This document shows, in pieces, positions 4,010 to 26,721 of a stretch of 39,331 nt of DNA. The notes below the pieces were generated by a model. It saw only the letters and a list, made by a program, of their open reading frames with translations. It had not been told where the DNA came from and searched no databases. The position numbers and the translations under genes were made by a program. The stretch is from positions 1-39,331 of the forward strand of contig JAGQNQ010000003.1 in assembly GCA_020428015.1 (NCBI GenBank), in the 5' to 3' direction. Source of the stretch: Candidatus Saccharimonadota bacterium (GTDB taxonomy: Bacteria > Patescibacteriota > Saccharimonadia > Saccharimonadales > SZUA-47). Numbering within the stretch: the first letter of the stretch is position 1; each line of letters begins with the position of its first letter.

Positions 4010-4024
4010 TATATTTTCTCTATA

Positions 4025-4258
4025 TGTGGACAGCCTGGGGAACGGCTCCGCACAAACCCCTGCTTTCTGTGCGAAGCCTGTGCCTTTTTCTAGGCTTATA
4101 CACACGAGCAAGCGTTTGTTTTTTTGGTTTTCCCTTGCAAAAACCACAGGCTATCCGAAAAAATTTCCACATAAGCTACACGATTCTGACCGAAGTTGCA
4201 GGCGAAATATCCCCACATTCCACAGTGCCTATAAAAATAACTATGTACATATATAAGA
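4025..4258. promoter_or_regulatory. Second DnaA-box-like cluster plus AT-rich stretch in the dnaA-dnaN spacer (candidate oriC/DUE)
   Basis: TGTGGACAG at 4025-4033 (reverse complement CTGTCCACA), aTTTCCACA at 4163-4171, cATTCCACA at 4216-4224, then the AT-rich ATAAAAATAACTATGTACATATATAAG at 4231-4257, just before the dnaN SD. Confidence 0.4.
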
Positions 4259-4267
4259 AGGAGAAGC

Positions 4268-5359: not shown

Positions 5360-5405
5360 CGCTCAATAGTTGATAGATGATACCTGATAGTTGATACTAG
5401 ATAGC

Positions 5406-9834: not shown

Positions 9835-9839
9835 AAATC

Positions 9840-12800
9840 TTAACCTCCGGTTGTTGAGAGGTGCCACCACTCACAACCCCCTTCATCTTTTCCGCCTCTT
9901 ATCTCAGTCCCATCTGAGTTAGAGCCTACGCACTGAAGAAGTAAACCAAACTTGTTGGAGTTTGCCGCAACCCATTCAAGACAAGGATATTGACCAACAC
10001 CGCTTAGGAAGCTTTCCCTTCCCCTACCGTTTCCAGCCACGTAACTTTTACCGCCTCCTTGACAACTTATATCAACAGCAGCACCATACTGATGATTTGA
10101 GTATCCAGGTTTCGCATATGTGCCTGCTCCAGCTCCACCTGCGTATCCTCTAATCTGGGACGCCATATCCCTAAATCCATATGTTCCTCTAAATGTATAT
10201 CCAGCTGCCTCCATTGCATTGAATAAATCGTCATAAGCCTTTGCTACTACTGAGTTAATTTCAACGCCGTGAACGCTGCACAGAGTTATGGAGTATTTTG
10301 TGCCCTTTATATATGCTTCTGGCTCAATCCTTAGGAAGCCGATAGTCGGGCTTTGCGGACAAGGAATTTTGTCTGTATTCTTGGGCTCAAGAGGTACCCC
10401 AGCTATTAGATCAGTTGGGACAGTATTAGACCCAGACCCTGTACCAATAGCGCTGGAACTATCAAGGTCAAAAATTTTTGTTAGTGAGTCTACTACTACA
10501 TCGTCTAGCAAACATGGATTTGATTTAGTGTAGATTTTCTCTCCTGTTTTAGAGTCAGTCCTAGCGCTTGATTCACGGTCGTGTTCATACTGCGAACACC
10601 TCTCGGGAGTTAATGTATCTGGGTCAACTGATAGTGCCTGGTCGTCAACGGCAAAACCATATTGTGTTACATCAAAAAGGCTAGAACGGTCAATATCGCT
10701 AAATGCTGAGGTCTTCTTATGGAGCCCAAATAGTGAAGATAATGTATCTATAAAACCAAGGTTAGTTAACCCGATACTGATAGACTCGCCTTGAAATGGT
10801 ATGGATTCACCGATTGCCATAAGGCCAGAGGTAGCTAGAGAATATGTATTATTTAGGCTAAAATATCTTTCAAAAACACTTTCAGTTTTTAGCATTTCAG
10901 CATTGTTTTTTGCAATTTCTACGTCTAGTTGAGTCTGTTGCGCGGAAGATAAAACCGTCCCGCCAAGGCCCACAGTCTCACCAGTTTCTGGGTCTTTATA
11001 ACCCTTAGCAAAAGAATTGGAGATAACATCAAGGGATCCCCCAAATTGGGTAGCCAATTTATAACCTCCAGCAGCAGCATCTAGACTAGAAGTGAAGACG
11101 ACTTTACTTATATTTTCAAACGCCCATATTGCAATTCTTCCTACTTGATCGGTAATATAGTCTATACCGTCGCCTACTATCGGGATATCTTGCAGGAAAG
11201 ACAGTAATGTACTGGCTATTCCAGAGATAGCCCAGTTTATACCTTTTAGCGCGCCATGTACTATGGGTTGAATCTTTGAACCAGGGGTACATCCAACGTA
11301 AGGTATGGGTAGGAAGCATTTATTATAGATATCTAAAGTAAGTTTTAAGGGTGGGAAATAATTTTTTAAAGCTTTCCATCCATCTTCAATAAAGCTACCG
11401 GGGTTTACTGTTAGTTCAGGGCAAACCAGGGGGTCGTCTTCGCCCTGTAATATCTTGCCATCTTCACATTCATTTACGCTTTTCGGCGAAATATTATTAA
11501 TCGACTGCCATAATCGACTTTTGTCATAACCAAAAAATTTTTGGACAACTGCTCCCTTGTCTTCAAGTGCTGACTCTGAGGATATAGCATCGTCACCAGC
11601 AACTAGCCAAGCCTGCCCATAGTCTGCCAGAGCCTGTTCTCGTAGTTGCTTTGCATATCCGCTTATTACACCTTTGTTTATTTTCTTATCTACCTGATCT
11701 ATCATGTCTAGTACCGATGCCGCCAAATAAACCTGACCTACTATGGGGACGCTGGATGCCGCGGCTTTGGACGCTGCTTCAGCGTCATATTCAAAAAATT
11801 TCTCAAGTATAATAGCAGTCATTTTTTTAGCTATATAGTCTGACATGCTTGAAGCTCCCAGATCTTCAATATCTTTCGCAATTTTTTCAACACTTTCTTT
11901 CCCGGCTTTTTCTACAATTTCTTGTGCGGCTTTTGACGCTTCTCGTTCAATCTTATCTGGGCTACAGTCTGTTGCAAAACAAAGTAAGTATACAGCCGAC
12001 TTTGAACTTATCGGGCTAGCCACTCGGTTTATTAACTTGTATTCAAGTTTCTTCAAGGCACTTATCTTTATATCGCTGATTTCGTCTTTTTTAGCACAGG
12101 CGATAATGCACCATTTACTTGCTTTATATTTTGATGCGAGCAGGCTTCGCAAGTGTCTTCTTTTAATAACGCCATCGAATTCAGTGTCTTGTTTCATTAT
12201 TTTAACAACTTCTTTGCCTACGGTATTCCGTCCGTATGTGCCAACTTCTCCCTTAACGCCAAAACTATTTGTTTTAAATACCTTAATCTTGTTTTTGTCC
12301 CTCGTGTCTAGTTCAAACGACAAACCATGATTATTAAAAAGTCGATCTTCTATTTTTCCATTTTTCCAGCTTCTGTAGAGTTTAGTTGTCAAAACAGTGC
12401 CGGCAGGGAAACTATTACAGCTAGCATCCACCTTAACGCCACAGGCCTTAGACGGTATAATAATATTCTGTACATACTTATCAACATATGTTTCGACGCG
12501 GGTCTCCAGTGCATAATTAACTCTGTTCATGAAAGCGTCAGTCATTTTAGTAGTCATTTGTTTTATTATTAGTGTAGGCAAAAAAGCAACTGCACCAAAT
12601 ACACTGACAACCAGCACAAGTATCCCAAGGGTAATGGCGGTCTTTTTCTTGTTTGATTTTCCCTTTCCAGAAATATATCTAGGGTTATTGTTCTCGCCAT
12701 CTGTTTCTTCATCAGTATCGTTCAGTGCGTCTTCCTCGCTACTAGATGCGGTTTCATTGCCGTCTTTTGTTGATGCTCTAGCTTCTCTTTCCGGGACTTC

Positions 12801-13076
12801 ACTCTCTTGCACGTCTTGAATAGTTTCGTCTGTGGCGTCACCTTGAAGAAACTCTGGCCTTATATCTTCCGAGCCAAAAGGTGCCGACGAATCTTCATCT
12901 CCACTTGCATCATCTGGTGAAACTGGTTCATCTGCTCGATCACCACTAGCAAAGTTACTTCTTTTTGTAGGGCTATTTAAAATAGGTGATTTCGAATAAG
13001 GGTTAAGCCTAGAGACTGACTTTCTGGAGAATTTTACATTATAACGGCGTCGTCCACCTGGGAGTTTTGTTGCCAT
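9840..13076 (-). CDS. Large (1078-aa) membrane-anchored protein with C-terminal VanY/M15B-type (LAS-family) peptidoglycan peptidase domain
   Basis: An acidic, low-complexity N-terminus is followed by one TM helix (AITLGILVLVVSVFGAVAFLPTLII) and a ~750-aa unassigned ectodomain. The C-terminal part has SNHQYGAAVDI (H-x6-D) and EWWHLS, as in VanY / D-Ala-D-Ala carboxypeptidase-like zinc peptidases. Confidence 0.75.
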   Translation of the reverse strand: MATKLPGGRRRYNVKFSRKSVSRLNPYSKSPILNSPTKRSNFASGDRADEPVSPDDASGDEDSSAPFGSEDIRPEFLQGDATDETIQDVQESEVPEREARASTKDGNETASSSEEDALNDTDEETDGENNNPRYISGKGKSNKKKTAITLGILVLVVSVFGAVAFLPTLIIKQMTTKMTDAFMNRVNYALETRVETYVDKYVQNIIIPSKACGVKVDASCNSFPAGTVLTTKLYRSWKNGKIEDRLFNNHGLSFELDTRDKNKIKVFKTNSFGVKGEVGTYGRNTVGKEVVKIMKQDTEFDGVIKRRHLRSLLASKYKASKWCIIACAKKDEISDIKISALKKLEYKLINRVASPISSKSAVYLLCFATDCSPDKIEREASKAAQEIVEKAGKESVEKIAKDIEDLGASSMSDYIAKKMTAIILEKFFEYDAEAASKAAASSVPIVGQVYLAASVLDMIDQVDKKINKGVISGYAKQLREQALADYGQAWLVAGDDAISSESALEDKGAVVQKFFGYDKSRLWQSINNISPKSVNECEDGKILQGEDDPLVCPELTVNPGSFIEDGWKALKNYFPPLKLTLDIYNKCFLPIPYVGCTPGSKIQPIVHGALKGINWAISGIASTLLSFLQDIPIVGDGIDYITDQVGRIAIWAFENISKVVFTSSLDAAAGGYKLATQFGGSLDVISNSFAKGYKDPETGETVGLGGTVLSSAQQTQLDVEIAKNNAEMLKTESVFERYFSLNNTYSLATSGLMAIGESIPFQGESISIGLTNLGFIDTLSSLFGLHKKTSAFSDIDRSSLFDVTQYGFAVDDQALSVDPDTLTPERCSQYEHDRESSARTDSKTGEKIYTKSNPCLLDDVVVDSLTKIFDLDSSSAIGTGSGSNTVPTDLIAGVPLEPKNTDKIPCPQSPTIGFLRIEPEAYIKGTKYSITLCSVHGVEINSVVAKAYDDLFNAMEAAGYTFRGTYGFRDMASQIRGYAGGAGAGTYAKPGYSNHQYGAAVDISCQGGGKSYVAGNGRGRESFLSGVGQYPCLEWVAANSNKFGLLLQCVGSNSDGTEIRGGKDEGGCEWWHLSTTGG

Positions 13077-13101: not shown

Positions 13102-15012
13102 TTATTGTTGCAACTGTACGGTATCATTATACCCTGTTTGTTCTAAATTTACTGCTTGCGCAGGTCCTCGATTTTGCGCTCGATTCGGATCAGTTGTTAT
13201 GAGTTCAGTTTCGGTTGGACTAGCAGCAATTTGAATATGCACATGGTTTTGTCCTGCAAAGAATAAGCCTTGTCCTACCGGGAACTGACTCAGGCGTTTC
13301 TTTTCTTCACTTGTGAGCTTGAAGACGTCACTTAGTACATCAACCGCTGACGGCGACTGCTTCAGCAGGATTTGCATACTGGCGTTAGCCACAATTGCCC
13401 TACCCATGCGTGATCCCATGAAGTCCTCGACATCCTGGGTGATAGTCGTGATACCTAGGTTATATTTACGTGCACGTTTAGCCAGACTGAATAAGAAGTT
13501 GGCAGAGTCTTCGTATTTCATTAGCTGCCACGCCTCATCCACGATTAATATGCGTTTTTTTTGGTCTGTCTTGGTCTTGTTCCAAATGTAGTTTAAAACG
13601 ATATACATGGCAACTGGTCGTAGCTCGTCCTCCAGATCTCGAACGTTAAATACTACCAGTGGGTTGTTTATGTCGATATTGCTCGGTTGACTAAAGATGC
13701 CCGCAAATGTTCCCGTTGTATATTTTCGCAGACGCTGAGCAAGTTGTGGCCCGGTACCACCCATGTGGAGGAGTGTGTCGTAAAGATGTGCTATGGTTGG
13801 TGCTGGTGATTTATGAGTCAAGGGGTCGTTCGTAATACCGGCTTTCGCATAGGTTTCAATCAGTGCCGCATCAAGATCTGATTCTTCGACTGGTGTAAGT
13901 GTTGGCATAATCGGTCCGTTACCACCCTGGTTTGCCATGGCAGCTTGGGCGCCCCCCATCATCAGCCTGAGTAGACCATGAAGGGTTATAAGGTTGCTGC
14001 GCAAAGCGTTATCACTTTCTTCTGGATCGGTCACATTCGGTAGATCAAAGGGGTTTATTCGTGTATTACTGTTGAGCGACAAGCGGACGTATGCTCCGCC
14101 AACCGCATCACACATGCGTTGGTATTCGTTTTCAGGATCGATTATGAATACTTCGGTACCAAACATCATGCTGCGTAGTGCTTCTAATTTCACCGTGAAA
14201 CTTTTACCCGCTCCAGATTTTGCAAATACCACTGAGTTGCCATTTTCTAAACTGAATCTGTCAAAGATTACTAACCCAGAGTTGTGCATGTTAATTCCAT
14301 ACATAATCCCCGTATCCTGAGTCAGGTCGGCACTTGTGAACGGAAATGCGGTACTAATTGCGCCTGTGTTCATATTGCGTCGAATCTGTAATTGATCTGT
14401 GAACTGAGGAATTGTTGAGTTAAGTCCTTGTTCTTGTTGGGCACTCGCAGGCTTACTATAGACAAGTTGCTGCGCAAGCACACTTTCAACCTTATGCGAA
14501 ACAAATTCCAGCTCTTCCATAGAACCTCCGTATATCGTGAAATAGAAGCCAAAGCGGAAAAATCGTTCTTCGCCAACTTGCAGCTTATCACGGAGTTCTT
14601 CAGCGTCCTGGATAGCAACTTGCTTTCCTGGGTCACGCACACGACCTTTTTCAGCATCAATCTGTAGTCCAGCCTCAAGTTGACCTACTTTCTTTTTCAG
14701 GTTTTCTAGTACAACTTGACTTTCAACTGGGTAGACAAATAGTGAAATATCAATAATTTCGTCTAGGTTCACCATGCTAGACAGCCAGCCAGTATAAATC
14801 TGTCGGGGATAGCCGTAGACATAGTAAGTACGACCAATGCGTGTACCGATTTTGAACACACTACTTTCAAACTCAAGGCTGGCGGGTGCAATAAAGTCAC
14901 GAAGTGCTGTTATTCCCTTCTGGAAGGCAGCCTGAACCTCAAGCTGTTCTCGAACCGCTTGGGCTTGGGCCTGGGCTATTGGATCTAACTTTTCTTTTCT
15001 GCCGAATGCCAT
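13102..15012 (-). CDS. virB4: VirB4/TrsE-type T4SS ATPase
   Basis: 636-aa ORF with Walker A VFAKSGAGKSFTVK and Walker B KRILIVDEAWQL. The Gram-positive VirB4-like N-terminal region reads RTYYVYGYPRQIYTGWLSSM...IDISLFVYP. Confidence 0.88.
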   Translation of the reverse strand: MAFGRKEKLDPIAQAQAQAVREQLEVQAAFQKGITALRDFIAPASLEFESSVFKIGTRIGRTYYVYGYPRQIYTGWLSSMVNLDEIIDISLFVYPVESQVVLENLKKKVGQLEAGLQIDAEKGRVRDPGKQVAIQDAEELRDKLQVGEERFFRFGFYFTIYGGSMEELEFVSHKVESVLAQQLVYSKPASAQQEQGLNSTIPQFTDQLQIRRNMNTGAISTAFPFTSADLTQDTGIMYGINMHNSGLVIFDRFSLENGNSVVFAKSGAGKSFTVKLEALRSMMFGTEVFIIDPENEYQRMCDAVGGAYVRLSLNSNTRINPFDLPNVTDPEESDNALRSNLITLHGLLRLMMGGAQAAMANQGGNGPIMPTLTPVEESDLDAALIETYAKAGITNDPLTHKSPAPTIAHLYDTLLHMGGTGPQLAQRLRKYTTGTFAGIFSQPSNIDINNPLVVFNVRDLEDELRPVAMYIVLNYIWNKTKTDQKKRILIVDEAWQLMKYEDSANFLFSLAKRARKYNLGITTITQDVEDFMGSRMGRAIVANASMQILLKQSPSAVDVLSDVFKLTSEEKKRLSQFPVGQGLFFAGQNHVHIQIAASPTETELITTDPNRAQNRGPAQAVNLEQTGYNDTVQLQQ

Positions 15013-15032: not shown

Positions 15033-15857
15033 TCATGCCGGTAGATCCTTATCTAGGTTTGGATTAGCTGCTTCGCCCAGCCCTTTTGTCACTACTGGTG
15101 CGTCAAGCCCTGAAAAATTCTTCATCTTTTGGCGTGTCGCGGTGTCTGGGTTATAAGCATCGTAGTACAGCTCTATCAATTCCTGGGTATCCAGGGGTAG
15201 TGATTGGACCTGGCACTGCTGCAAACCGGCCATGACTGCTTGAATACGATTTTTAAGCTCAGTTTTTGCTTGTTCTAGATCGTTTTCATTGATAACTACA
15301 CGCTGTTCCTTATTGCCGAGGATAGTTGAAAAGAAACCCTTGCTCGCTTTTACTACTTTTTGTGTGTCAACAACTGGCTCGAAAGGAATCACAACGTAAA
15401 ACTTCTTGTCCATGATATTCGTCTGCTGCGCTACGGCATCCATGTAGTTTATGTAGTCTTCCATAAGGAGCGCAAGCAGCATATTATCGTGCTCGGAGCG
15501 AATTTTGTCTAGTTTATCGATATAAGGTCTTAAGTCTACTTTCTGGGAGCGAACAAAAATCTGAATTGGAAAATACAGAGAGTTCAGGAACCCTTGATAT
15601 GCGTATTCAACAGCTTCACGTTCCTGACCGCTCATTAAATCAAAGTTTATACTTTGGCACATCATGACCGCACGAAACGTACCATCATTTAATATGACAA
15701 TACCATCACGAATTTCAGCAATTTCTAGTGCGTTTTGGGTACTTATTTTATTTACGGGCAAACCTGGAGTTGCGACGGGAGGACCTGCCTGCCCCGGCAT
15801 TTGCGGGATGGCCGTCTGAGGATTTGCTGCCTGTTGGTTCGGGTTCAATGGATCCAC
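15033..15857 (-). CDS. Unknown T4SS-associated protein; resembles a free-standing VirB4/TrbE N-terminal domain (weak)
   Basis: 274-aa ORF with a Pro/Gln-rich N-terminus, then IAEIRDGIVILNDGTFRAVMMCQSINFDLMSGQEREAV..PIQIFVRSQKVDL. This pattern is typical of the N-terminal part of VirB4/TrbE proteins. The gene sits directly upstream of virB4. Confidence 0.45.
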   Translation of the reverse strand: MDPLNPNQQAANPQTAIPQMPGQAGPPVATPGLPVNKISTQNALEIAEIRDGIVILNDGTFRAVMMCQSINFDLMSGQEREAVEYAYQGFLNSLYFPIQIFVRSQKVDLRPYIDKLDKIRSEHDNMLLALLMEDYINYMDAVAQQTNIMDKKFYVVIPFEPVVDTQKVVKASKGFFSTILGNKEQRVVINENDLEQAKTELKNRIQAVMAGLQQCQVQSLPLDTQELIELYYDAYNPDTATRQKMKNFSGLDAPVVTKGLGEAANPNLDKDLPA

Positions 15858-15867
15858 CTGTCCTTAC

Positions 15868-17076
15868 TTAATGTAATGATATAACGACTTCGCCTTCATC
15901 AGGCATATCTTTTTTAGCCTGACGAGCGAGCGTCTCAACGTTTAAATCGTCGTTACCGGATAGTGCCAGTATAGCAGGATCTACAGGGGTTGTGCTAGTG
16001 CCTGCAGGGTCACTTATAGCTTTATCGCTGGCAGGGTCATCTTGTGCTTGTGAGCTGCTTTGTCCGTCGTCCTGGACAGCTGAGAGTGGCTGAATTGTTT
16101 TTAGATGAGTGTGTTGTTTCATCGAGGCTTCCTGCGCCTGCTTAGAGTGGACTTTTTCAAGTAACTTTGCTTCATCTTCTGCTTTGATTGTGGGTTGCGA
16201 GACGCCCATACCCATAGTCGAGGTCTCTTTTGTACCCGGCGCAACAACACTGTTGCTTTGAAACGAAGCTAGGTTTGGATCACGAGGCTTCTCTGGTTCG
16301 TTGAGAAACCATAGGTCTTGTGGGTTAACCCCTTTTTCTTTTTTGGGATGCTTCTTCTTTGCTTCTTGTGTTTCTGCAACAGCGGGCAGCGGGATATCTT
16401 CATCGGTTTTATGTACAGATGTTGCCTGGCGTGCTTGCTCAATCATGTTAAGCGTGTCTTGTTTGTGTTTTTGCTCAGACTGCTGAATGAGCGTACTGAA
16501 CTGATCTGTGATTGCATTATGTTCGTCCATGACATCAACAGTGCTCGCTAATATTTGGTCATTTTCATCTGGTGTACGTTCTGTTGCCGCAACTAGCCGG
16601 TCGGATTGCTCTTCATCTGTATATGCGGCTATGTTTTTTACTGCCCAGCCACGGGTGTCGACGACACTCGCCAAAGCATTCACGCGGCTATATACCTGAT
16701 CGTGGCTCAGTCCGTCGCTATAGACTTTCTCTTCTCTTTTTGGAACGGTGACTTCGACAAGGTCTTTGATGCCCGTCTGATCCCATATTCGTCTGCGCGG
16801 GACCAGGAAAAAACGAATACGTGCCGCGAGCCATATTTCAGTCGGCTGGTCTTTACTCCATGGAAAGGCCAGGATAGCAAAAAAAGCAAAGACAGGTAGT
16901 AAAAGCGCCACGCCAATCCAAATACTTTTGGTCGCAAATATAAATAGGATGTAGCCTGAAATAGCCGCTCCACCAGCAAACAAGAACTGCTTGAACGTCA
17001 GAGGCCCAAGAAACTTGTCCTCAGCCTCAACATCTTGTGGTACTTTATACCCCGCCATACCGGTTAAGTATAACAT
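15868..17076 (-). CDS. PrgI-family (VirB3-like) membrane protein with a long acidic/Gln-rich C-terminal extension
   Basis: The N-terminus (M)AGYKVPQDVEAEDKFLGPLTFKQFLF is followed by two TM helices (AAISGYILFIFATKSIWIGVALLLPVFAFFAILAF), as in PrgI/VirB3-like proteins of Gram-positive conjugation systems. ATG 17058 is an alternative start. Confidence 0.55.
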   Translation of the reverse strand: MLYLTGMAGYKVPQDVEAEDKFLGPLTFKQFLFAGGAAISGYILFIFATKSIWIGVALLLPVFAFFAILAFPWSKDQPTEIWLAARIRFFLVPRRRIWDQTGIKDLVEVTVPKREEKVYSDGLSHDQVYSRVNALASVVDTRGWAVKNIAAYTDEEQSDRLVAATERTPDENDQILASTVDVMDEHNAITDQFSTLIQQSEQKHKQDTLNMIEQARQATSVHKTDEDIPLPAVAETQEAKKKHPKKEKGVNPQDLWFLNEPEKPRDPNLASFQSNSVVAPGTKETSTMGMGVSQPTIKAEDEAKLLEKVHSKQAQEASMKQHTHLKTIQPLSAVQDDGQSSSQAQDDPASDKAISDPAGTSTTPVDPAILALSGNDDLNVETLARQAKKDMPDEGEVVISLH

Positions 17077-18167: not shown

Positions 18168-18437
18168 TTATTTGACTTTAGTACAGTATCTTTGAGGGTC
18201 TTCTTCTAACTCATGAGGTAGAGAACGCCAAGCTTCAAGGGTGTACATTTTAAGTCCGAGGACGCCATAGTCTACTTTATAGAAGCCAAAGTTATCGGTT
18301 GACAATGCTTCGGGGTGTGATTCGGTTAGGTCTTGCGCCATAACACCAACGTACTTTTGCTTACTCCAAATATATTCAAAGCTGTAGAGTTTGATGCCTG
18401 CACCCGTAGTTGTAAGGTACGAGATATTTTTTTTCAA
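18168..18437 (-). CDS. Peptidase S74-type intramolecular chaperone domain (phage tail-fibre/endosialidase C-terminal domain), in frame with the upstream ORF across a TGA
   Basis: (R)LKKNISYL..IKLYSFEYIW..YVGVMAQDLTESHPEAL....FYKVDYGVLGL matches the S74 pattern SDxRxKxNI ... F.y ... G(F/V)(I/M)AQ(D/E) ... (V)(D/N)Y. There is no ATG before residue 31 and no SD before TTG 18437. See the finding on the in-frame TGA. Confidence 0.6.
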   Translation of the reverse strand: MKKNISYLTTTGAGIKLYSFEYIWSKQKYVGVMAQDLTESHPEALSTDNFGFYKVDYGVLGLKMYTLEAWRSLPHELEEDPQRYCTKVK

Positions 18438-18440
18438 GCG

Positions 18441-21230
18441 TCAGTCTGACGTAGTGCCGGTGCCCGCGCCAGGTGGTCCAGGAGGTTGAATCCCCTGCTG
18501 TGCTGCCTGCTGAGCTCGCGCTCCTTGCAGGGCGTCAACACCATACTCTTTGCGACGATCCAAAAATTCTTTTGATTCGTTTGATTGAGGAAGTTGCTGG
18601 ATGAGCTCTCTGATTGTTGTTGGTGGTGGGTTTGTCACGGTTCGTTTTACTACGTTGCCGTTCACATCAATTTGAGGCTGACCATTTTGTCCATATACCA
18701 TTTGTTCAGTGGTTAATGTCACACCCGAAATTTGTTGACCCATAAGCTCATTGGCAAAAGCAGCTGCGTTTTGGGGTGCGGCCTGTCCCATCGCGTCGTA
18801 TAGCCCGGCAGCAGCTGCAGTTGCTGCAGAGACATCATCAATGTTCGCAGCACGCCCCAGCGATTCAATTACTGTTCCATTGTTCATGCTGTCGATAAGT
18901 CCCTGGATCCTTCTTGCGTGGGCCTGGCCAATAGCAGCTGCACTGTTCGGCTTACCGTACATGGCCTCTTGAGGGGTTGCAGAGTCAAGTACATCGTCAT
19001 ATATGATTTGCGAAGCCTCTGCCTCAAGTCCTTCTCGCCGATCCCGCGCGATAATATTATTTCGATCGCCGTGACTTCCTGCTTGATATAATCTACCCAT
19101 TTGTGCCGCCATTGTGGCATAACCAGCTTTTCCGAGTGCAACTTGCCCAGCCTGCACAGAAGCACTTCGCATTCGAGCCAGTGCAGCACCTGCTCCAGCG
19201 CGGTCGTCGCCATATGCCTCGTTGATATCATTTAGCATTGCGGCAACATCAACACCGGTATGTCGCTCTCCATTCTCGTCAACGTAATCGTACTGGTATG
19301 CAGTTCCAGTTGCTGCTTGAGCCTCAACCCTCGCCTTATTAAAAGCCTCAAATCCAACCTTTTTCTGTGCTCTTACAATCGATGCAACCGCACTATCCAG
19401 GGCAGCAGGATCTGTAGTGAAGCGATCCCCTCCCTGTCGGATTAGCTCTGCTCGAATATCGGACTCGTCTTTAAATCGCGCAGCCCAAAGCATGTCGTCG
19501 TCTCCTTTAATGACCGCAAAGTCGTGATCTTTTTGGGCGAATTCCTGTGCCTCATGTCCTGAATGAGCATTCATTCCTTGTGCTATGTTTCGGCGCCATT
19601 TGCGTGGGTTGGCACTAAAAGCGTTTGGATCCTTTGCTTGATAGGCAAATTCCCCAGCTCTGTTAAGTCGTGCTCGTATTCCAGTTTCGCCCGCACGCTT
19701 ATACCTATTACCTGAAGCAGCATCATGAGCAAGTTGTTTTCGCTTTTCAGATCGATATTTCCTTGAACGGTCGAATAATCCCTTGCTTCGGTCATTGACC
19801 ATGCCGGCAATGCTTGAGAAAGCGTTACCCGCGTACTGAAATGCCTTAGGAATGAAAAAGAAGGGGCCTATGTAGGCAGTAAGTTTTATCAATATAATAA
19901 ACACTCCACCGTCACCGGCAGCACCTGCAGTGTTGTTTATTAACACGGCAAATCCCCTACCAGTCATAAGTAACCCAACAATTATTGGATAGAGAAGTAA
20001 TAATTTTGAAAAAGTTCCCCACCATAACTTCCATAGCTTATCGTTACCTGGGAAAATCCAAGATAGAATTGCCACAGGTGCCATTATCACTAAGAAAATT
20101 ATCAAAAGTTCTCTGACGGTTAATATAAAGAAAATAATTAACAAAGCTAAAGCTGCAGTGCCTAGGTAACTGGCAAGTATTCCTATAGAAACTGCTCCGA
20201 TACCGAAAAGTGCTACAGCAGCTAGTGGTCCAAAAGTAGCGATAGCAACATCATTACCAATGCTTGCATTAAAAACATTCTGCAACGTTAGTTTGTCTGC
20301 TCCACCAAAAGGCTGAGCTATAAGCCCGCCTACGCCCCTACCGATAGCATTTGTCATTTCAATCATTATCCTTGCGACGTCAAATGATAGTGCAATAAAG
20401 ATAATAGCAATAATCAAGCGGGGCATTGCCCTCTTAACTGTATAGGCGTCTAGAAATTTAAATCCGAGAGCTGTCCCAATAACCATTACTAGCATAATAG
20501 GTATTAATAGAACGTAGGCTATGTTCCGTATCCTGGCCCATGCTAGTTCCACTGATCCTGTTTGCCCACTTGCCTGATTTTGAAGATATTCAGGGTTGAC
20601 CTCTAGGGCCTGCCGCACCCTTCCGTCTAAGTAATCAACTACTTCATTTGCACCCCTTAGAAGAGGGCATAAAATAAAACTAAACTCACCTCCCTCATCT
20701 TCACAGCTGGCAGAGGCACCACTGGCGGTTTGTGGTAGGCCAGCCGAGCCCACAGATGATGTGTTGGGGTTGGTTGCAACAAAGTTACAGCTGATTCCAT
20801 CCCATGTCCCATTTGCATCTCTACAAGCATTTGAATCCGTTATATTAACAACCGTTCCTTCGACGTTGGGGTTAAGTTCTACTATATTGCAGTCAACACC
20901 TACAATCTGATTTCCTTTTCCGGCATCAACTACGGAACCCCAAAGACCGAGTACATCAGCCGTATCAGGGTTGTCCATAATAATATCTTCACCACAAACA
21001 AAGTTCGGGGGCAGGTATATTAGCCAATTTTTGGTAGCGACATCTCTTTTATCGACACCTGCCAAGGTATACGTTACCCCCCTGAAGCTAACTTGCTGGC
21101 CTGAAATATACGCTGACTCAGCACTCGCCAAGAGAGTCATAGACATAAACGAAACTAAAAACACAAACAAAATTATCGGAAATCTGAACGATTTCATTTT
21201 TGATAAAAACATATGCACTAATTTTAACAC
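18441..21230 (-). CDS. VirB6/TrbL-like polytopic T4SS channel protein with an N-terminal secreted Cys-containing head domain and a ~450-aa hydrophilic C-terminal tail
   Basis: 929-aa ORF: signal peptide (..FMSMTLLASAESA), a ~150-aa ectodomain, at least 6 TM helices (e.g. IAYVLLIPIMLVMVIGTALGF, LALLIIFFILTVRELLIIFLVIMAPVAILSWIF), then a long Ala/Gly/Gln-rich tail ending ..GAGTGTTSD-TGA. The VirB6 call rests on topology and operon context. The start is ambiguous (GTG 21230, ATG 21212 or ATG 21197). Confidence 0.65.
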   Translation of the reverse strand: MLKLVHMFLSKMKSFRFPIILFVFLVSFMSMTLLASAESAYISGQQVSFRGVTYTLAGVDKRDVATKNWLIYLPPNFVCGEDIIMDNPDTADVLGLWGSVVDAGKGNQIVGVDCNIVELNPNVEGTVVNITDSNACRDANGTWDGISCNFVATNPNTSSVGSAGLPQTASGASASCEDEGGEFSFILCPLLRGANEVVDYLDGRVRQALEVNPEYLQNQASGQTGSVELAWARIRNIAYVLLIPIMLVMVIGTALGFKFLDAYTVKRAMPRLIIAIIFIALSFDVARIMIEMTNAIGRGVGGLIAQPFGGADKLTLQNVFNASIGNDVAIATFGPLAAVALFGIGAVSIGILASYLGTAALALLIIFFILTVRELLIIFLVIMAPVAILSWIFPGNDKLWKLWWGTFSKLLLLYPIIVGLLMTGRGFAVLINNTAGAAGDGGVFIILIKLTAYIGPFFFIPKAFQYAGNAFSSIAGMVNDRSKGLFDRSRKYRSEKRKQLAHDAASGNRYKRAGETGIRARLNRAGEFAYQAKDPNAFSANPRKWRRNIAQGMNAHSGHEAQEFAQKDHDFAVIKGDDDMLWAARFKDESDIRAELIRQGGDRFTTDPAALDSAVASIVRAQKKVGFEAFNKARVEAQAATGTAYQYDYVDENGERHTGVDVAAMLNDINEAYGDDRAGAGAALARMRSASVQAGQVALGKAGYATMAAQMGRLYQAGSHGDRNNIIARDRREGLEAEASQIIYDDVLDSATPQEAMYGKPNSAAAIGQAHARRIQGLIDSMNNGTVIESLGRAANIDDVSAATAAAAGLYDAMGQAAPQNAAAFANELMGQQISGVTLTTEQMVYGQNGQPQIDVNGNVVKRTVTNPPPTTIRELIQQLPQSNESKEFLDRRKEYGVDALQGARAQQAAQQGIQPPGPPGAGTGTTSD

Positions 21231-21280
21231 TGTTTATAAAGCCCACAAAAACAAAATAACGGATAGCAAAAACCATATAC

Positions 21281-21309
21281 ATGACAAAAATGTACTATTT
21301 AGCTAAACT
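21281..21309 (+). promoter_or_regulatory. Candidate promoter of the plus-strand pilin operon in the 85-nt divergent control region
   Basis: ATGACA (21281-21286), a 17-nt spacer, then TAAACT (21304-21309), with ATG 21316 only 6 nt further on. A small inverted repeat TACAT-N7-ATGTA (21279-21295) overlaps the -35. Confidence 0.35.
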
Positions 21310-21315
21310 GATGCT

Positions 21316-21921
21316 ATGGATAATCAAGAACAAAAAAATAACGACTATGCATTTTTAGTCGACCCTTTGCAACATGTTACCCCTCCTGCCAATAATAGGT
21401 TCAACAAGAAATACCTAATCATAATTTTAGCTATGGTTGTAGCAGTAATGCTTACTGTGTTGGCGATTATTGCTTCGGTAGTTAGTAATACAAACAATGC
21501 GGTTAATGAAGACATCCAAGTTCAGAAAATCACATCATCAGATGCAGCGCCTGCAATTGAAAAAATGCAAAATTTAATATCTGCATTCTCTAATCAAGAC
21601 TATAAAACAGCGGTTAATCTGATTAGTCCAGAGTCGCAGATTTATTTATCAGGTGTTAATCAGCCAACATTAAATGCATATACAGGAGAAGGAGTTCAGT
21701 GGAGTTCATGCAAGCAAATTCAAAAGGATAGCTACGATACCACAGAAGACATATCTAATTCTCAAACATTTCAGGTGATTTATATAGACTACTCATGCCC
21801 ATATAAAGGAGAAGACAACAATAAAAGGGTTACATTTGATGTTCGGAAAAACCTATCGATAAATAATAGTGACTGGAAGTTATACTATATAGTTGTAGTA
21901 GAAGGTGCAAATGAGCAGTAA
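21316..21921 (+). CDS. Unknown membrane-anchored protein (first gene of the plus operon)
   Basis: 201-aa ORF with one TM helix (YLIIILAMVVAVMLTVLAIIASVV) and then a small globular ectodomain. It overlaps the next gene by 11 nt. Confidence 0.6.
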   Translation: MDNQEQKNNDYAFLVDPLQHVTPPANNRFNKKYLIIILAMVVAVMLTVLAIIASVVSNTNNAVNEDIQVQKITSSDAAPAIEKMQNLISAFSNQDYKTAVNLISPESQIYLSGVNQPTLNAYTGEGVQWSSCKQIQKDSYDTTEDISNSQTFQVIYIDYSCPYKGEDNNKRVTFDVRKNLSINNSDWKLYYIVVVEGANEQ

Positions 21922-23182
21922 AAGAAAAATGACATTAAACAAACTGATTAACGGGTTAACGGTATTACTCTTGTTTTTGGGCACATTTATATTTTCAACT
22001 TCTCTTGTATCGGCTGAAGATGCTCTGGTTTCAGGTAATCAGATAAAATATCAAGGAGTTACTTACACGTATAAGGGTATCGACAATAGGCCAAGTAGCA
22101 GGATTTACGGATGGAAAATTTATCTGCCAGTTGGATTTAGTTGCGGTGACAATATTATTGTAGACAATCCTGAAACATCCGGAACGGTAGCATATAGAGG
22201 TACAACAGCTTCATCTGGAGAGGCAAGTCCAATAATTGGGGACTGTAAAACAGTTGTAGAAAATGTACAGCCAGCAATTGTAAATATTGACACTGAGAGT
22301 CTATGCAGTACCAATAATGGTATATGGACTGGGACAGAATGTAACTTTAACGGCGTTGGTCTGAATTTGCCTCTACCGTCCGGCAGATGCTACTCTTCAA
22401 ACGGCTCAAACTATAACGTAATAAATTGCCCTACGGGAAGTAGCCCAGGTCAAAACTGCATAGTTACTCACCCGCCTGCATCTGGACCTGTACAGATTAG
22501 CTGTAACACTGGACTGCCATTAGCTACAAGCCAAGGCGGCACAATTAATTGTAGTAATACAGTTACCATTGATTGCGTACAAGATGATGGCTTATACCGC
22601 TGCTGGGACGGTTCAGCAATTGCAATGGCAAGGGGATCCACCTGCCCAGTAAACGCCGATCTAGTTCATAGAACTATTTGCGAAAATACAGGAGGAGACT
22701 GGAGGCTTGGAATAAATGACACCTACAGTTGCTTCTGCCCTAATAATTTGGCCTTCGATCAGACCAATGGGTGCCCTGATCCATTAGTGAATAATACAGA
22801 TCGCCAACAAGCGTGTGAAGGATCAGGAGGTGTATGGCAGGCACAATCGGGCGGAACTACTGGGTGTTCGTGTCCGTCTTCTGGTCAATTGAATGCTGAT
22901 GGATCATGTCCTAAATACGATTGTTCTGACCCAGAATTAAATGCAAAAAATTGCCAGATTGTAAATTATTTAGTCGGAGGCATAAACTTCTTGTCGGCAG
23001 TTGCAGGACTCGCTATAGTAGCATCAATAATGATTGCAGGGTATCAATATATGACGGCCCGTGATAATTCGGGGCAGATTGAGGCAGCAAAGAAGCGAAT
23101 TATATGGGCACTTGTCGCTCTTGGCCTATTCCTATTTATGTACGCTCTCTTGAATTTCCTTGTTCCTGGAGGTGTCATATAA
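21911..23182 (+). CDS. Giant pilin: signal peptide + Cys-rich ectodomain + C-terminal TrbC/VirB2-type T4SS-pilin domain
   Basis: ATG 21911 follows AGAAGG. I count 22 Cys in the ectodomain. The C-terminus, IVNYLVGGINFLSAVAGLAIVASIMIAGYQYMTARDNSGQIEAAKKRIIWALVALGLFLFMYALLNFLV, has the same helix-loop-helix pilin module as the five downstream genes. Confidence 0.7.
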   Translation: MSSKRKMTLNKLINGLTVLLLFLGTFIFSTSLVSAEDALVSGNQIKYQGVTYTYKGIDNRPSSRIYGWKIYLPVGFSCGDNIIVDNPETSGTVAYRGTTASSGEASPIIGDCKTVVENVQPAIVNIDTESLCSTNNGIWTGTECNFNGVGLNLPLPSGRCYSSNGSNYNVINCPTGSSPGQNCIVTHPPASGPVQISCNTGLPLATSQGGTINCSNTVTIDCVQDDGLYRCWDGSAIAMARGSTCPVNADLVHRTICENTGGDWRLGINDTYSCFCPNNLAFDQTNGCPDPLVNNTDRQQACEGSGGVWQAQSGGTTGCSCPSSGQLNADGSCPKYDCSDPELNAKNCQIVNYLVGGINFLSAVAGLAIVASIMIAGYQYMTARDNSGQIEAAKKRIIWALVALGLFLFMYALLNFLVPGGVI

Positions 23183-23608
23183 ATGAAAACATTAAAAAGT
23201 TTCGTTGCAGTGTCTTACATGTTGCTTTTAACTCTCGTTGCCGTTCCCTTTTTCACCATTCCAGCATCTGCCGCAGCTTGTAATGACTTTGATAAAACAG
23301 TACTTGGAATCCCAACATGGTACAAATACCTGCAGGGTGAGGATGTAAGCGGAAAATGTCGTCCGATAATCAACGCTTCTAAGGATGCCCTGCCGATAGG
23401 CCTCGCAGTGCTTGAGGCCGCTATGACACTCGGAGGCCTCGTTGCAGTTGTCATGATCTTTGTAGGATCGTTCAAGTTTGTAATTGCTCAAGGTGAGTCA
23501 AAAAAAATTACTGAAGCTAAAAATACCGTTATTAACTCAGTCGTCGGACTCGTTATCGTTATCATATCGACCAGGATCGTTTCATTTATTGCAGGGAGAA
23601 TAGGATAG
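23183..23608 (+). CDS. TrbC/VirB2-type T4SS pilin paralog 2
   Basis: Signal peptide ending ASAAAC, a Cys pair, then ..LGGLVAVVMIFVGSFKFVIAQGESKKITEAKNTVINSVVGLVIVIISTRIVSFI. The ATG directly follows the previous stop. Confidence 0.7.
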   Translation: MKTLKSFVAVSYMLLLTLVAVPFFTIPASAAACNDFDKTVLGIPTWYKYLQGEDVSGKCRPIINASKDALPIGLAVLEAAMTLGGLVAVVMIFVGSFKFVIAQGESKKITEAKNTVINSVVGLVIVIISTRIVSFIAGRIG

Positions 23609-23612
23609 TAAG

Positions 23613-23903
23613 ATGCAGGTTTTACATCTAATCGCACAAATAAGTATTAACAAAGGGGATCTAAACATCCCTCAATCGGATCCTTCGAGCAGTACCGTTT
23701 CTTCTGCTCTGACCTTGGCATTTGGCATCATGGGAGCCATATCGTTCTTACTAATAGTTGTATCTGGACTGAGGTTCTCTTTGAGCCGAGGAAATAGTGA
23801 ATCTGTAGCAAAAGCCCGCAACAGCATTATTTATTCGGCTGTTGGATTAGTTATCTCAATGTTAGCCTTCGCTATTGTGCGGTTTGTCGTGAGGAGTGTC
23901 TGA
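23613..23903 (+). CDS. TrbC/VirB2-type T4SS pilin paralog 3 (short, no signal peptide or Cys pair)
   Basis: ..FGIMGAISFLLIVVSGLRFSLSRGNSESVAKARNSIIYSAVGLVISMLAFAIVRFVV. Its stop overlaps the next start (ATGA). Confidence 0.6.
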   Translation: MQVLHLIAQISINKGDLNIPQSDPSSSTVSSALTLAFGIMGAISFLLIVVSGLRFSLSRGNSESVAKARNSIIYSAVGLVISMLAFAIVRFVVRSV

Positions 23904-24319
23904 TGATAGGCACGAAATCCGAAGCACGAAATCCGAAATGGCTGCAGATAATCTTTGGGATCCTAATTAGTTTCTGGGTTATTTTGGCGCCACTCACTGC
24001 TATGGCGCAGTTTGATCCACTTGCTGCGGCCTGTCAGGAAAATCCCAACGCAACGGCTTGTACAGAGAGTAAAAATGCTCAAAATCAGAACGAGAATCCA
24101 GTTACTGATACCGTCAACAAGGTAGCAAATCTGATCGCAATTGCTACAGCCGTCATATCTATCATCGTCATAATAATTGCAGGCATTTCTATGATATTTT
24201 CTGCTGGTGAGTCGTCCTCAATAAAATCTGCAAGAGACGCAATTATATATGCGGCAGTAGGTATAGTTGTCGTTGCTCTGGCAAGAACAATAGTGATTTT
24301 TATAGTAAATAGGATTTAA
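23903..24319 (+). CDS. TrbC/VirB2-type T4SS pilin paralog 4
   Basis: Signal anchor, a Cys pair (AAACQENPNATAC), then ..AVISIIVIIIAGISMIFSAGESSSIKSARDAIIYAAVGIVVVALARTIVIFIV. Confidence 0.7.
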   Translation: MIGTKSEARNPKWLQIIFGILISFWVILAPLTAMAQFDPLAAACQENPNATACTESKNAQNQNENPVTDTVNKVANLIAIATAVISIIVIIIAGISMIFSAGESSSIKSARDAIIYAAVGIVVVALARTIVIFIVNRI

Positions 24320-24330
24320 CGGGGGTAGTA

Positions 24331-24738
24331 ATGATTCGAAAAAAGATACTAACAAGTGCGGTGGGTGTCCTACTGCTTTTTGCTCCTTTTACGGCAGCGA
24401 TTACAGCTAACGCAGCAGTGGACTCCGCAAGTGACGCAAAGGCAGCGGTATGTGATGGTTTAGGGGCGGCTTCTGGAGGTAACGGTTGTGAAGATCCAGA
24501 TGGAAGTTCCTCTTTAAGTGGTACCGTCGCAGCCGCAATTAACCTTATTTCGCTGGTCGTTGCTGTTATAGCGGTATTTATGGTGATTGTCGGCGGGTTG
24601 AAGTATGTCACAAGCCAAGGAGAGTCATCGAGCACCGCGAGCGCCAAGAATACCATAATCTATGCGATAGTTGGTCTTTTGATTGCCGGGTTGGCTCAAG
24701 TGATCGTTCGTTTTGTCGTGAACAGAACTACCTCCTAG
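24331..24738 (+). CDS. TrbC/VirB2-type T4SS pilin paralog 5
   Basis: Signal peptide (..ITANAA), a Cys pair (VCDGLGAASGGNGC), then ..LVVAVIAVFMVIVGGLKYVTSQGESSSTASAKNTIIYAIVGLLIAGLAQVIVRFVV. Confidence 0.75.
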   Translation: MIRKKILTSAVGVLLLFAPFTAAITANAAVDSASDAKAAVCDGLGAASGGNGCEDPDGSSSLSGTVAAAINLISLVVAVIAVFMVIVGGLKYVTSQGESSSTASAKNTIIYAIVGLLIAGLAQVIVRFVVNRTTS

Positions 24739-24870
24739 ACACCAACGACCAATACTAGTGCTCCGGCTCGGTGGGGTACAGTAAATCCAAATATTCGTTA
24801 GACTTGAGAATCATGACGCGCTTATGATATAAAGTAAAGTAACGTAATCAAAAGAAGGAAAGACGAAAGA

Positions 24871-25299
24871 ATGAACAGAATTAAGAGAATTTTACTAACG
24901 ACAGCAGCAGCTTTAGGACTAGTTATGCCCCTCGCAGCTCCGGCAATGGTGAGTGCGGCCGACACAAACGTTTCTGGAAACCTAAATTGTGGTGCGGCTC
25001 TCGACTTTGATGGAAGTGACTGTGATAATTCAACTGCTGGTACGGACGTAGACAATCTAGTTACGAGCGTAATCAACATCATTTCACTTGTTGTTGGTGT
25101 CGTCGCCGTCATCATGATCATCATTGGTGGTCTTCGCTACATCACCTCAGGCGGTGAATCAGGCAGTGTCACTGGTGCAAAGAATACGATTCTCTATGCG
25201 GTTGTTGGACTCATTGTCGTGGCATTATCACAGGTTATCGTACGTTTTGTCGTGGATCGAGCGACACTAAACGGCGGTTCATCAACAGCTGGTGATTAA
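24871..25299 (+). CDS. TrbC/VirB2-type T4SS pilin paralog 6 (closest to paralog 5; may have its own promoter)
   Basis: Signal peptide (..AMVSAA), a Cys pair (NCGAALDFDGSDC), then ..LVVGVVAVIMIIIGGLRYITSGGESGSVTGAKNTILYAVVGLIVVALSQVIVRFVV. It follows a 132-nt spacer containing TTGAGA-17-ATATAA and SD AAGGAAAG. Confidence 0.75.
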   Translation: MNRIKRILLTTAAALGLVMPLAAPAMVSAADTNVSGNLNCGAALDFDGSDCDNSTAGTDVDNLVTSVINIISLVVGVVAVIMIIIGGLRYITSGGESGSVTGAKNTILYAVVGLIVVALSQVIVRFVVDRATLNGGSSTAGD

Positions 25300-25374: not shown

Positions 25375-25878
25375 CTACAGAACCTGAATCTTTTTTACGG
25401 AGTCTTGTTTGAGCTTCGTAAAGCTAATAGTGAGTACGCCGTCCTTTAGGACCGCTTCGATCTCATCTTCTTTAACTGGAACTGGTAGTGCAATACTGCG
25501 ACTAAATTCGCCCCAGTAACATTCCTGCACAAAGTAATTCTCTACTCCGGCTTCTTCACCCGCACTGAGCGTACCGCGGATGCTAAGTGTGTTGTCTGCA
25601 ATGCTCACATCAAGGTCATTCTTGTTTACCCCTGCTGTGCGTGCTTTAACCACAAGCTTCTCGCGTGTTTCAAACACATCGACTGCTAGTTGTCCTGGAA
25701 CGGCCTCTTCTTCTTCCCATTCATCCTGAGGCTGAGGTGCGCTCGAATCATCATCGCCCATCCCCATGTCATCTTCCATTGGCATCGGAGCCATTTGTGA
25801 TGTGTCTTCTTCGCCTAAGAATGCAGCAGTGAGCTCGTCTTCTAGTAGTAGGTCTTCGTCACGAGTTTTTCTCGCCAT
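25375..25878 (-). CDS. Hsp20/alpha-crystallin small heat-shock protein with an acidic N-terminal extension
   Basis: Alpha-crystallin domain: LAVDVFETREKLVVKARTAGVNKNDLDVSIADNTLSIRG...GEFSRSIALPVPVKEDEIEAVLKDGVLTISFTK. SD AAGGAGGG. Confidence 0.85.
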   Translation of the reverse strand: MARKTRDEDLLLEDELTAAFLGEEDTSQMAPMPMEDDMGMGDDDSSAPQPQDEWEEEEAVPGQLAVDVFETREKLVVKARTAGVNKNDLDVSIADNTLSIRGTLSAGEEAGVENYFVQECYWGEFSRSIALPVPVKEDEIEAVLKDGVLTISFTKLKQDSVKKIQVL

Positions 25879-26049
25879 GTTATTACTTCCCTCCTTAAGT
25901 TTCTCGCAAGTCTAGCTTGGTTGCGAAGGGTACTAATTTTCGTGCCCCTCGCGAAGTATCAAGCGTTTTTATGTTATAACCAGTATAGCTGAGAAGTGTC
26001 AACAAGGGCAACTTATTAGCATGTTATTTACAACACAATAAACACAACA

Positions 26050-26721
26050 ATGATACATATTGACTCACTTATAGAACATATTGCTCCTCATTCCTGTCTG
26101 GGCTGTGGGAGAAACGGGCCGCTTCTCTGCTCAACTTGCTCTGATGAATATTTTGAACAGATTCAGCCGAGATGTGTTGGCTGCAAACGACTATCTGACC
26201 ATTTTAAAGTCTGTACAAACTGTCGCAGTTGGCTACCCTTGCAATCAGTACGTGTTTCGGCCAACTACGAAGGGATTGCCGAGGCTCTTGTACATAGTTT
26301 AAAGTTTGACTGTCGGCGAGCCGCAGCGGGTCCAATTGCTCAATTAATGGCGAGCCAAATTGTTGATAGCGATGGCACACTACTCTGCCCCATCCCAACA
26401 GCTCCATCCCGGGTACGCCAGCGAGGATTTGATCACGCACTCCACATAACAAAACGGTTATCTAGGCACACAAAAGTTCCCTATCAGCAGCTTCTTAGAA
26501 GGCATACAAATGTGCGTCAGCTCGGTGCATCTAGGTTAAATCGTATTAGGCAGATGGAACGAGAATTTGAAGCGATAAAACAAGGAGAAATTAAGGGTAA
26601 ACACGTTATTTTAGTAGATGATGTATTTACGACTGGTGCGACGCTTTCTGCAGCAGCAAAAGTACTACGAAAGGCGGGTGCGCGCCGAGTTTCGGCCGTT
26701 GTATTTGCTCAGAAAGTGTAG
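26050..26721 (+). CDS. comF: ComF-family protein (phosphoribosyltransferase fold, competence-associated)
   Basis: N-terminal Cys4 cluster (CLGCG..CSTC..CVGC..CTNC) and a C-terminal PRTase motif HVILVDDVFTTGATLSAAAKVLRKAG. Confidence 0.8.
   Translation: MIHIDSLIEHIAPHSCLGCGRNGPLLCSTCSDEYFEQIQPRCVGCKRLSDHFKVCTNCRSWLPLQSVRVSANYEGIAEALVHSLKFDCRRAAAGPIAQLMASQIVDSDGTLLCPIPTAPSRVRQRGFDHALHITKRLSRHTKVPYQQLLRRHTNVRQLGASRLNRIRQMEREFEAIKQGEIKGKHVILVDDVFTTGATLSAAAKVLRKAGARRVSAVVFAQKV

Follow-up and report, generated by a model that had tools for sequence, protein, structure and literature searches.

A rare N-terminal head module shared by a VirB6-like protein and a giant VirB2-type pilin in a Saccharimonadales type IV secretion locus

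Why would two different components of one secretion machine, a membrane channel protein and a pilus subunit, carry the same N-terminal domain? The question is raised by a 39,331-nt chromosomal stretch of a wastewater member of Candidatus Saccharibacteria (order Saccharimonadales), hereafter the window, which encodes a type IV secretion system (T4SS). A T4SS with an array of VirB2-type pilins is known from Patescibacteria, including its nearness to dnaA (Wang et al. 2023, PMC10633639; Quinonero-Coronel et al. 2025, PMC12102498). System and array are essential for the epibiotic growth of S. epibionticum, with unknown function (PMC10633639, PMC11665869, PMC12102498, PMC12857230); a field review calls their role in Saccharibacteria 'completely unknown' (PMC11665869), and no pilus of any Patescibacteria T4SS has been demonstrated yet (PMC12857230). 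In the window, two membrane anchors, a VirB6-like protein and the oversized pilin of VirB2 type that heads the array, begin with one and the same domain after their signal peptides (Table 1).

A first-pass annotation had aligned the two proteins over about 120 residues after their signal peptides, and formal alignment bears this out. BLASTP of the full proteins gave 56 identities in 133 positions (42%, E=8e-29), and removal of the signal peptides gave 49 in 116 (E=4e-31), which defines a module of ~115 residues at 42% identity. The sequence blocks pointed out in that annotation, YLP..F.CG(D/E).II.DNP.T and VNI, all align, as do four conserved cysteines (C79/C114/C136/C148 in the VirB6-like protein, C80/C114/C134/C146 in the pilin), which suggest two disulfides within the head, putatively C44–C79 and C101–C113. 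A six-frame hidden Markov model (HMM) scan found exactly two module copies in the window. The two segments are paralogous copies of a small, rare, probably extracytoplasmic domain of ~115 residues, predicted to be mostly beta in structure and with two probable disulfides.

Of the identities proposed for the two carriers, that of the pilin held, and membrane architecture and gene neighbourhood support that of the VirB6-like protein. The 425-residue protein comprises a signal peptide, the head module, a Cys-rich stalk and a pilin core, and matches PF18895 (T4SS_pilin) at its C-terminus, residues 361–419, above the cut-off (28.3 bits versus 26.6); the Mbov_0395 pilin-like model of NCBIfam (NF045849) scores below its cut-off (35 bits versus 40; E=8.7e-9). 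Its hydrophobic segments lie at residues 11–38, at 352–383 and, by inspection, at ~398–420, giving a leader and a C-terminal hairpin, and its gene is the first of a six-gene pilin array beside VirB6, VirB3 and VirB4. The VirB6-like protein shows a signal peptide, a variable head, a conserved Cys pair in a CE..GG.FSF.LCP motif, a polytopic transmembrane core (residues ~230–460) and a hydrophilic C-terminal region of ~450 residues. It has 6–7 hydrophobic segments between residues 232 and 461, at least five being expected of a polytopic protein, and 394 homologues, all in Patescibacteria. Precomputed annotation assigns PF19590 (TrbL_3) to it and to nearly all of the 120 homologues listed, at E≤1e-5 for P0069, P0006, P0037, P0127 and P0098. 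Its gene is parted from those for PrgI (VirB3-like), a TrsD-like protein and VirB4 by just two small open reading frames (ORFs), a synteny also seen in L001, L002 and L009. Annotation sources disagree on this family: hmmscan against local Pfam-A returned no TrbL/VirB6 family for the VirB6-like protein, even at E≤10, PDB and NCBIfam searches returned none either, and PF19590 is likewise present in the precomputed annotation and absent from hmmscan for P0002, P0003, P0006, P0037 and P0069.

The module is very rare. An exhaustive HMM search of 1.84 billion cluster representatives gave 16 matches at E≤1e-3. Almost every true member is a Saccharimonadales VirB6-like protein (P0001, which is that of the window, P0069, P0100 and P0127, joined by P0006, P0037 and P0098 from the comparison of VirB6-like homologues) or a first pilin whose C-terminus is a T4SS_pilin core (P0121, that of the window, P0122, P0123, P0124 and P0126); the weak remaining matches are unrelated repeat proteins. 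Word-indexed protein searches with the module alone or with a 12-sequence module alignment returned no matches, though true members exist, and the module has no match in sequence-profile searches of Pfam, NCBIfam or PDB. The only family member found outside VirB6-like proteins and pilins is P0125 (L008, 104–1024), which joins PG_binding_1 to a truncated module copy; its gene neighbours encode glutaredoxin and PIN proteins, and the locus is free of T4SS genes. Its module lacks the last hairpin, so the hairpin seems to be a separable unit.

An AlphaFold2 model built on the 12-sequence alignment is confident and mostly beta (predicted local distance difference test score, pLDDT, 87.7; predicted template modelling score 0.79). 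VirB2-type propilins are processed, and the module lies directly after the signal peptide in both proteins, so a generic leader or pro-region, needed for export or processing and later removed, has to be considered. Against this, the module is confined to 16 clusters among 1.84e9 proteins and to a small minority of otherwise orthologous T4SS loci; it is predicted to form a confident globular fold with four conserved cysteines, and on the pilin a further Cys-rich region of 200 residues comes after it. A leader role is thus highly improbable, and with the significant alignment (E=4e-31) and the rarity of the module (16 matches in 1.84 billion), neither result that the first-pass annotation had named as fatal to a shared head, an insignificant alignment or a generic signal or pro-region, was obtained.

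Pattern-based module scans of genome and metagenome contigs gave no confirmed relative, and related loci were therefore surveyed from VirB4, whose window copy is 81–89% identical to the VirB4 of 80 species-representative Saccharimonadales genomes. Related loci keep one architecture: ComF-like phosphoribosyltransferase, HSP20, pilin array, first pilin, sometimes a ~200-residue protein, divergent VirB6-like gene, PrgI, TrsD and VirB4. The module is present in one of the 55 species-level Saccharimonadales loci retrieved through VirB4 and in 7 of 121 VirB6-like homologues. Placement was counted in eight loci with both N-termini readable. Both proteins carry the module in two of the eight (the window and L004), the VirB6-like protein alone in four (L001, L002, L010 and L060), and the pilin alone in two (L003 and L007); where a single partner bears it, the other has an unrelated head or none. 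Across more than 45 loci that encode the two proteins together, a VirB6 head resembling a pilin head was seen in the window and L004 alone, which rules out head sharing as a general rule for VirB6 and pilin.

These counts bear on the other explanation offered in the first-pass annotation, a docking interface between pilus base and channel. In the form considered here, VirB6 head and pilin head would bind each other homotypically, and this contact would start the pilus on the channel platform or hold it there. Gram-negative VirB6 does serve as a platform for the assembly of pilus components (reviewed in PMC12624023, PMC12857230), and the two loci with the module on both partners are independent and distant (36% identity between the VirB6-like proteins, 41% between the pilin cores). 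Against an obligate interface speak the six of eight informative loci in which one partner alone has the module, the restriction of within-locus head similarity to two of more than 45 loci, and the window copies themselves, which are 42% identical and evolve independently, one lying in a diverged tract and the other invariant. We therefore consider docking improbable.

The heads behave like cassettes. The region ahead of the CE..GG.FSF.LCP motif in VirB6-like proteins spans 34 to 460 residues, and BLAST clustering of 58 VirB6 heads gave 38 clusters. The Cys pair beyond the module is nearly invariant in all 121 VirB6-like proteins. The window pilin core is 77–79% identical both to the core of P0124, where the module is present, and to that of a 196-residue pilin of L002, where it is absent. 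The nearest relatives of the window VirB6 transmembrane core carry a divergent module (P0006, 67–68%), no head (P0002, 65%) or an unrelated head (P0003, 61%), and the most similar VirB6 module, that of P0069 (43%), sits on a distant core (42–44%). In bootstrapped neighbour-joining trees, module copies of the same genome are never sisters (4% and 1%; window copies 4%); the VirB6 copy of the window groups weakly with P0006 (58%), and that of L004 with P0069 (56%). Carrier cores and heads have discordant histories, and heads have been exchanged independently of their anchors. At the nucleotide level, the two window copies share one 41-nt stretch at 78%, and no conversion tract linking them was found. 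Recent intragenomic duplication and ongoing gene conversion are ruled out by this short match, by the non-sister position of the copies and by a variant VirB6 allele that is not nearer to the pilin copy. The window looks like a combination of a VirB6 head common to the L002 lineage with a module-bearing giant pilin common to the L003 lineage; either recombination or differential loss could account for this combination.

Exchange also appears to reach the strain level. Wastewater and activated-sludge metagenomes contain DNA nearly identical to the window, and contigs from four independent runs of this kind were compared; the comparison is contig-based and partial. Flanks across the locus are ~99.8% identical in other runs (~8 differences in 3.98 kb in run X2), and the pilin module has no difference from the four other populations, with a single difference just outside it. 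The tract holding the VirB6 head and linker (~20605–21165), by contrast with its flanks, is 7–19% diverged or unalignable in all four, with 27 differences in 389 nt of the head in X2 and 46 in 247 nt in X6. At 20605–20697 nothing was alignable at ≥80% in the other wastewater runs, and the window's own allele of the tract was found in no indexed run. No RNA run contained the region. Elsewhere in the locus, at 15368–16338 (the TrsD-like gene and the C-terminal region of PrgI), an X2 contig of strain-like depth differs at 50 of 971 nt and beyond that is unlike the window. This could reflect another tract of divergence, or the contig may come from a related species.

What, then, might the head do? 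There is roughly an even chance, in our judgement, that it is an interchangeable, exposed ligand-binding module (an adhesin or receptor-binding domain) directed at the host cell's envelope, with a glycan as one possible target. The first-pass proposal of one exposed module at two display sites with a common ligand is plausible to the extent that an extracytoplasmic-looking, Cys-rich N-terminus, the cassette swaps, the VirB6 hot spot and a faint CBM5/12-like signal all fit it. The signal is a hint from sequence: the first ~40 residues of the module share the carbohydrate-binding module (CBM) 5/12 pattern Y..G..V.Y.G..Y...(n)...W..Y.P, and the remaining ~75 residues have no counterpart in that family. 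In P0129, a protein with nine CBM_5_12 domains (E=8e-48), twelve repeats align in register with module positions 2–40, and hhalign of the module against its nine CBM5/12 repeats gave a probability of 78.9% (E=1.6e-5, 41 columns).

Several results weigh against a ligand-binding head. The match to PF02839 is below threshold (at best 15.5 bits against a cut-off of 26.2, E=0.018, over 19 residues) and occurs in 2 of 13 module sequences. Foldseek with the whole module found nothing similar (best E=2.0 in PDB and 1.5 in BFVD, which holds viral models), and a 42-residue sub-domain model (pLDDT 95) met the PDB entries 1ed7, 4tx8, 4nyu and 9jt0 at E 6–7, with TM-scores of 0.26–0.34 and a root-mean-square deviation of ~9 Å. 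An assignment to CBM5/12 (PF02839) was not adopted, its support being confined to sequence profiles while superposition failed, and glycan binding is on these grounds a lead and not a result. No ligand or binding site for the head was identified; surface display, incorporation into a pilus and the topology of the VirB6-like protein are predictions; and a module carried by ~2–6% of related loci is not a core function of the T4SS. Finally, the readable changes between VirB6 alleles are mostly synonymous (12 synonymous to 6 nonsynonymous codons, and 8 to 6), so that the residues seen give no sign of positive selection. The diversifying selection that the first-pass annotation had proposed to look for does not appear in these partial allele data, which give a ratio of nonsynonymous to synonymous rates (dN/dS) under 1 for the variable tract, and positive selection on the VirB6 head is unsupported. 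The tract instead looks like a diverged allele that was imported by recombination and is under purifying selection.

Two further explanations share part of this evidence. The head might act in cis, as an anchor or spacer attached to peptidoglycan or wall glycan of the epibiont itself, fixing channel mouth and pilus base in the cell wall; the CBM5/12 resemblance, the fusion of P0125 to PG_binding_1 outside any T4SS context and the M23 and VanY wall hydrolases of the operon suit such a role. A wall anchor should be conserved, though, and the head is absent from ~94–98% of related loci, has given way to unrelated heads in the nearest relatives and lies in a hot spot of strain-level divergence, while the link to CBM5/12 is unconfirmed. 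We judge this unlikely. Alternatively, the heads might form an exposed variable shield without specific ligand, being just the outermost parts of the machine, whose turnover is driven by phages or host defences directed at them. The 38 clusters among 58 heads and the mosaic VirB6 allele agree with that idea, and similar reasons have been proposed for variation in the pilin array (PMC12102498), but what is predicted to be a well-folded, disulfide-stabilised domain keeps its core motifs across very distant carriers and is under purifying selection, which together exceeds the demands on a passive shield. A shield is accordingly as improbable as docking.

If the ligand-binding reading holds, the heads would face outward from the membrane: on VirB6 at the mouth of the channel, and on the pilin fusion at the outside or tip of a pilus or conduit. 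There they would bind some constituent of the host envelope. The 8.6-nm tube that joins a Saccharibacterium to its Gordonia host (PMC11880426) makes a conduit of this kind plausible. A pilus would hardly accommodate an N-terminal extension of 310 residues on all of its subunits, and the giant pilin would then be a tip or minor subunit. By analogy with Gram-negative VirB5, which is placed on VirB6 and ends at the pilus tip, this fused tip or minor pilin may stand in for the absent VirB5-type tip adhesin. Swaps of heads would then tune which hosts the epibiont can engage. Taken to its full extent, the proposal is tentative and we lean against it as a whole: Saccharimonadales would choose hosts through interchangeable receptor-binding T4SS heads, much as phages do with tail-fibre tips; the 425-residue protein would be the first 'modular' VirB2-type pilin, a fused VirB5 substitute; the VirB6 head would guard the channel mouth, with tip and channel recognising the same host molecule in turn; and recombination of head cassettes would drive host switching.

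Table 1. Features of the window, in order of position (aa, residues)
Feature	Position	Strand	Remarks
dnaA, dnaN, RecF-like gene, yidC	744-6449		
dnaA	2504-4009		
M23 peptidase	7867-9870	-	T4SS operon
VanY-domain protein	9840-13076	-	1078 aa; T4SS operon
VirB4, CD1110 family	13102-15012	-	NF045971 358.9 bits, cut-off 325
TrsD-like N-part, separate from VirB4	15033-15857	-	weak match, 28.5 bits
PrgI/VirB3-like	15868-17076	-	PrgI E=3.5e-12
337-aa protein without assigned family		-	between PrgI/VirB3-like gene and 89-aa S74-like ORF
89-aa Peptidase_S74 (intramolecular chaperone) ORF	18168..18443	-	in frame after TGA stop (18441-18443) of VirB6-like gene; precedes that gene in order from PrgI side
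VirB6/TrbL-like T4SS membrane protein	18441..21230	-	929 aa from GTG; 923 aa from ATG 21212
Head module copy A	20781..21125	-	VirB6-like aa 36-150; independent E-value (HMM) 1e-40
Signal peptide of VirB6-like protein	21126..21230	-	hydrophobic aa 12-35, end ...LLASA/ES; cleavage site by inspection
Divergent intergenic spacer	21231..21315		85 nt, VirB6-like gene versus 201-aa gene
201-aa bitopic (single-pass) membrane protein	21316..21921	+	transmembrane aa 28-60, ~140-aa ectodomain, 2 conserved Cys
Giant modular VirB2-type pilin	21905..23182	+	425 aa; 417 aa from ATG 21929
Head module copy B	22010..22348	+	pilin aa 36-148; independent E-value (HMM) 4e-49
Cys-rich stalk of pilin	22349..22939	+	aa 149-345, 18 Cys; repeated C..GG.W....C mini-motifs
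Pilin core (T4SS_pilin hairpin)	22940..23182	+	highly conserved
Five small VirB2-type pilin genes	23183..25299	+	141, 96, 138, 135, 142 aa; PF18895 in all five, E 1e-11 to 9e-9

The surroundings of the two carriers identify the system as an MPF-FATA-like (mating-pair formation class FATA) T4SS of Patescibacteria, with a VirB4 of CD1110/FATA type, PrgI, a TrsD-like protein and a VirB2 array, chromosomal and near dnaA. About 1.5 kb separates dnaA, dnaN and the RecF-like gene (2504–6449) from where the T4SS operon ends, a distance that fits the reported nearness of Patescibacteria T4SS to the replication origin. On the plus strand, divergent from the VirB6-like gene, run a 201-aa gene, the pilin fusion and the five small T4SS_pilin genes. 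At its distal end (25375–26721) the array is flanked by genes for HSP20 and for a ComF-like phosphoribosyltransferase that bears a double zinc ribbon, a synteny kept in L001, L002 and L003.

The VirB6-like and pilin genes had been described as back-to-back around the divergent spacer, which proved wrong: because the 201-aa gene intervenes, the spacer does not adjoin the pilin gene, which lies 3' in the same plus-strand operon. Promoter-like matches in the spacer were no more frequent than in shuffled sequence. The 201-aa protein has a short cytoplasmic N-terminus before its transmembrane segment, and in L002, L003 and L011 its gene likewise separates VirB6 from the first pilin; L001, L004 and L010 lack it. 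It has no Pfam or PDB match, and a PDB profile search for VirB8-like identity gave noise driven by the transmembrane segment. A VirB8-like component is reported missing from the Saccharimonadia T4SS; topology and size fit, and the protein could be that component.

All 22 cysteines of the pilin fusion fall within residues 80–350. Its stalk gives weak repeat matches to the C-terminal hairpin of the module in the HMM scan and is 44% identical to the stalk of P0124. The stalk mini-motif C-x3-GG-x-W-x(4-10)-C has the same pattern as the last hairpin of the head module, and recurs in P0122, P0126 and the pilin of L060; in other first pilins it is present in single copy.

The C-terminus of the VirB6-like protein varies as well. 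Its stop codon falls two residues into an S74 domain (junction peptide ...GTGTTSD*RLKKNISYL..., where the asterisk marks the stop). In metagenome runs X1 and X5 an A>G change at 18443 turns TGA into CGA (Arg) and fuses the VirB6-like protein with S74, as in P0003, P0019 and P0020, so that the window carries a polymorphic nonsense variant. The read-through peptide scores 31.5 bits on PF13884 (cut-off 22), with the match starting at the conserved Ser-Asp, against 18.7 bits for the 89-residue ORF alone. The S74 domain hints that the C-terminal region forms a trimeric fibre.

A predicted disulfide-stabilised, secreted head, borne by just those two components that should face the host, points to a function in host contact. 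As an expressible domain of ~115 residues, it gives a testable handle on an essential T4SS, and the variation of head cassettes between species and between co-occurring strains makes it a candidate for the genetic basis of host range in a lineage that is uncultured and abundant in activated sludge.

The nearest known system is the T4SS of S. epibionticum (SEML1_0006-0019; PMC10633639, PMC12102498), which has the same gene set and order and likewise lies near dnaA. Common to both are M23/VanY proteins, a CD1110-type VirB4 with a separate TrsD-like N-part, PrgI/VirB3-like and VirB6-like proteins and a divergent array of sequence-divergent VirB2-type pilins. In the papers available on this T4SS we found no description of variable heads on VirB6 or the first pilin, of the head domain family or of its dual placement. 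The T4SS and its pilin array are already known; the N-terminal heads, the domain family and the dual placement appear to be the new part.

Beyond this system, the likeness to modular type IV pilins, phage receptor-binding cassettes, extended VirB6 proteins and VirB5 adhesins is conceptual, and the head is homologous to none of them. Modular type IV pilins, such as PilB and PilC of Streptococcus sanguinis, graft an adhesive module onto a pilin core. The design is the same here, a conserved polymerising core with an extra globular module (ligand-binding in type IV pilins), and the idea of 'modular pilins' is thereby extended to VirB2-type T4SS pilins; unlike them, the window pilin is of VirB2/TrbC type, bears its module N-terminal to the hairpin and shares it with a non-pilin protein. 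Phage receptor-binding proteins likewise combine a conserved anchor with an exchangeable distal domain, recombinant mosaic alleles and an S74 domain, found here on the VirB6-like family, whereas the window protein belongs to a cellular secretion system and its head has no similarity to viral structures. The extended VirB6 proteins of Rickettsiales and others (PMC2653234, PMC12857230) also join a polytopic VirB6 core to large hydrophilic domains without assigned function that vary by paralogue or lineage. In the window the variable part is an N-terminal secreted ectodomain, and some alleles and homologues of the family have a C-terminal extension that finishes with an S74 chaperone domain of phage type. 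The VirB5 tip adhesins of R388 and Ti (PMC9259494, PMC12857230) show no similarity to the head in sequence or fold and are separate subunits, whereas the head is covalently fused to VirB6, to the pilin or to both, in a monoderm system that lacks VirB5. Yet a VirB5 adhesin, the protein that contacts the target, starts on VirB6 and ends on the pilus, and these are the same two positions at which the window places its head.

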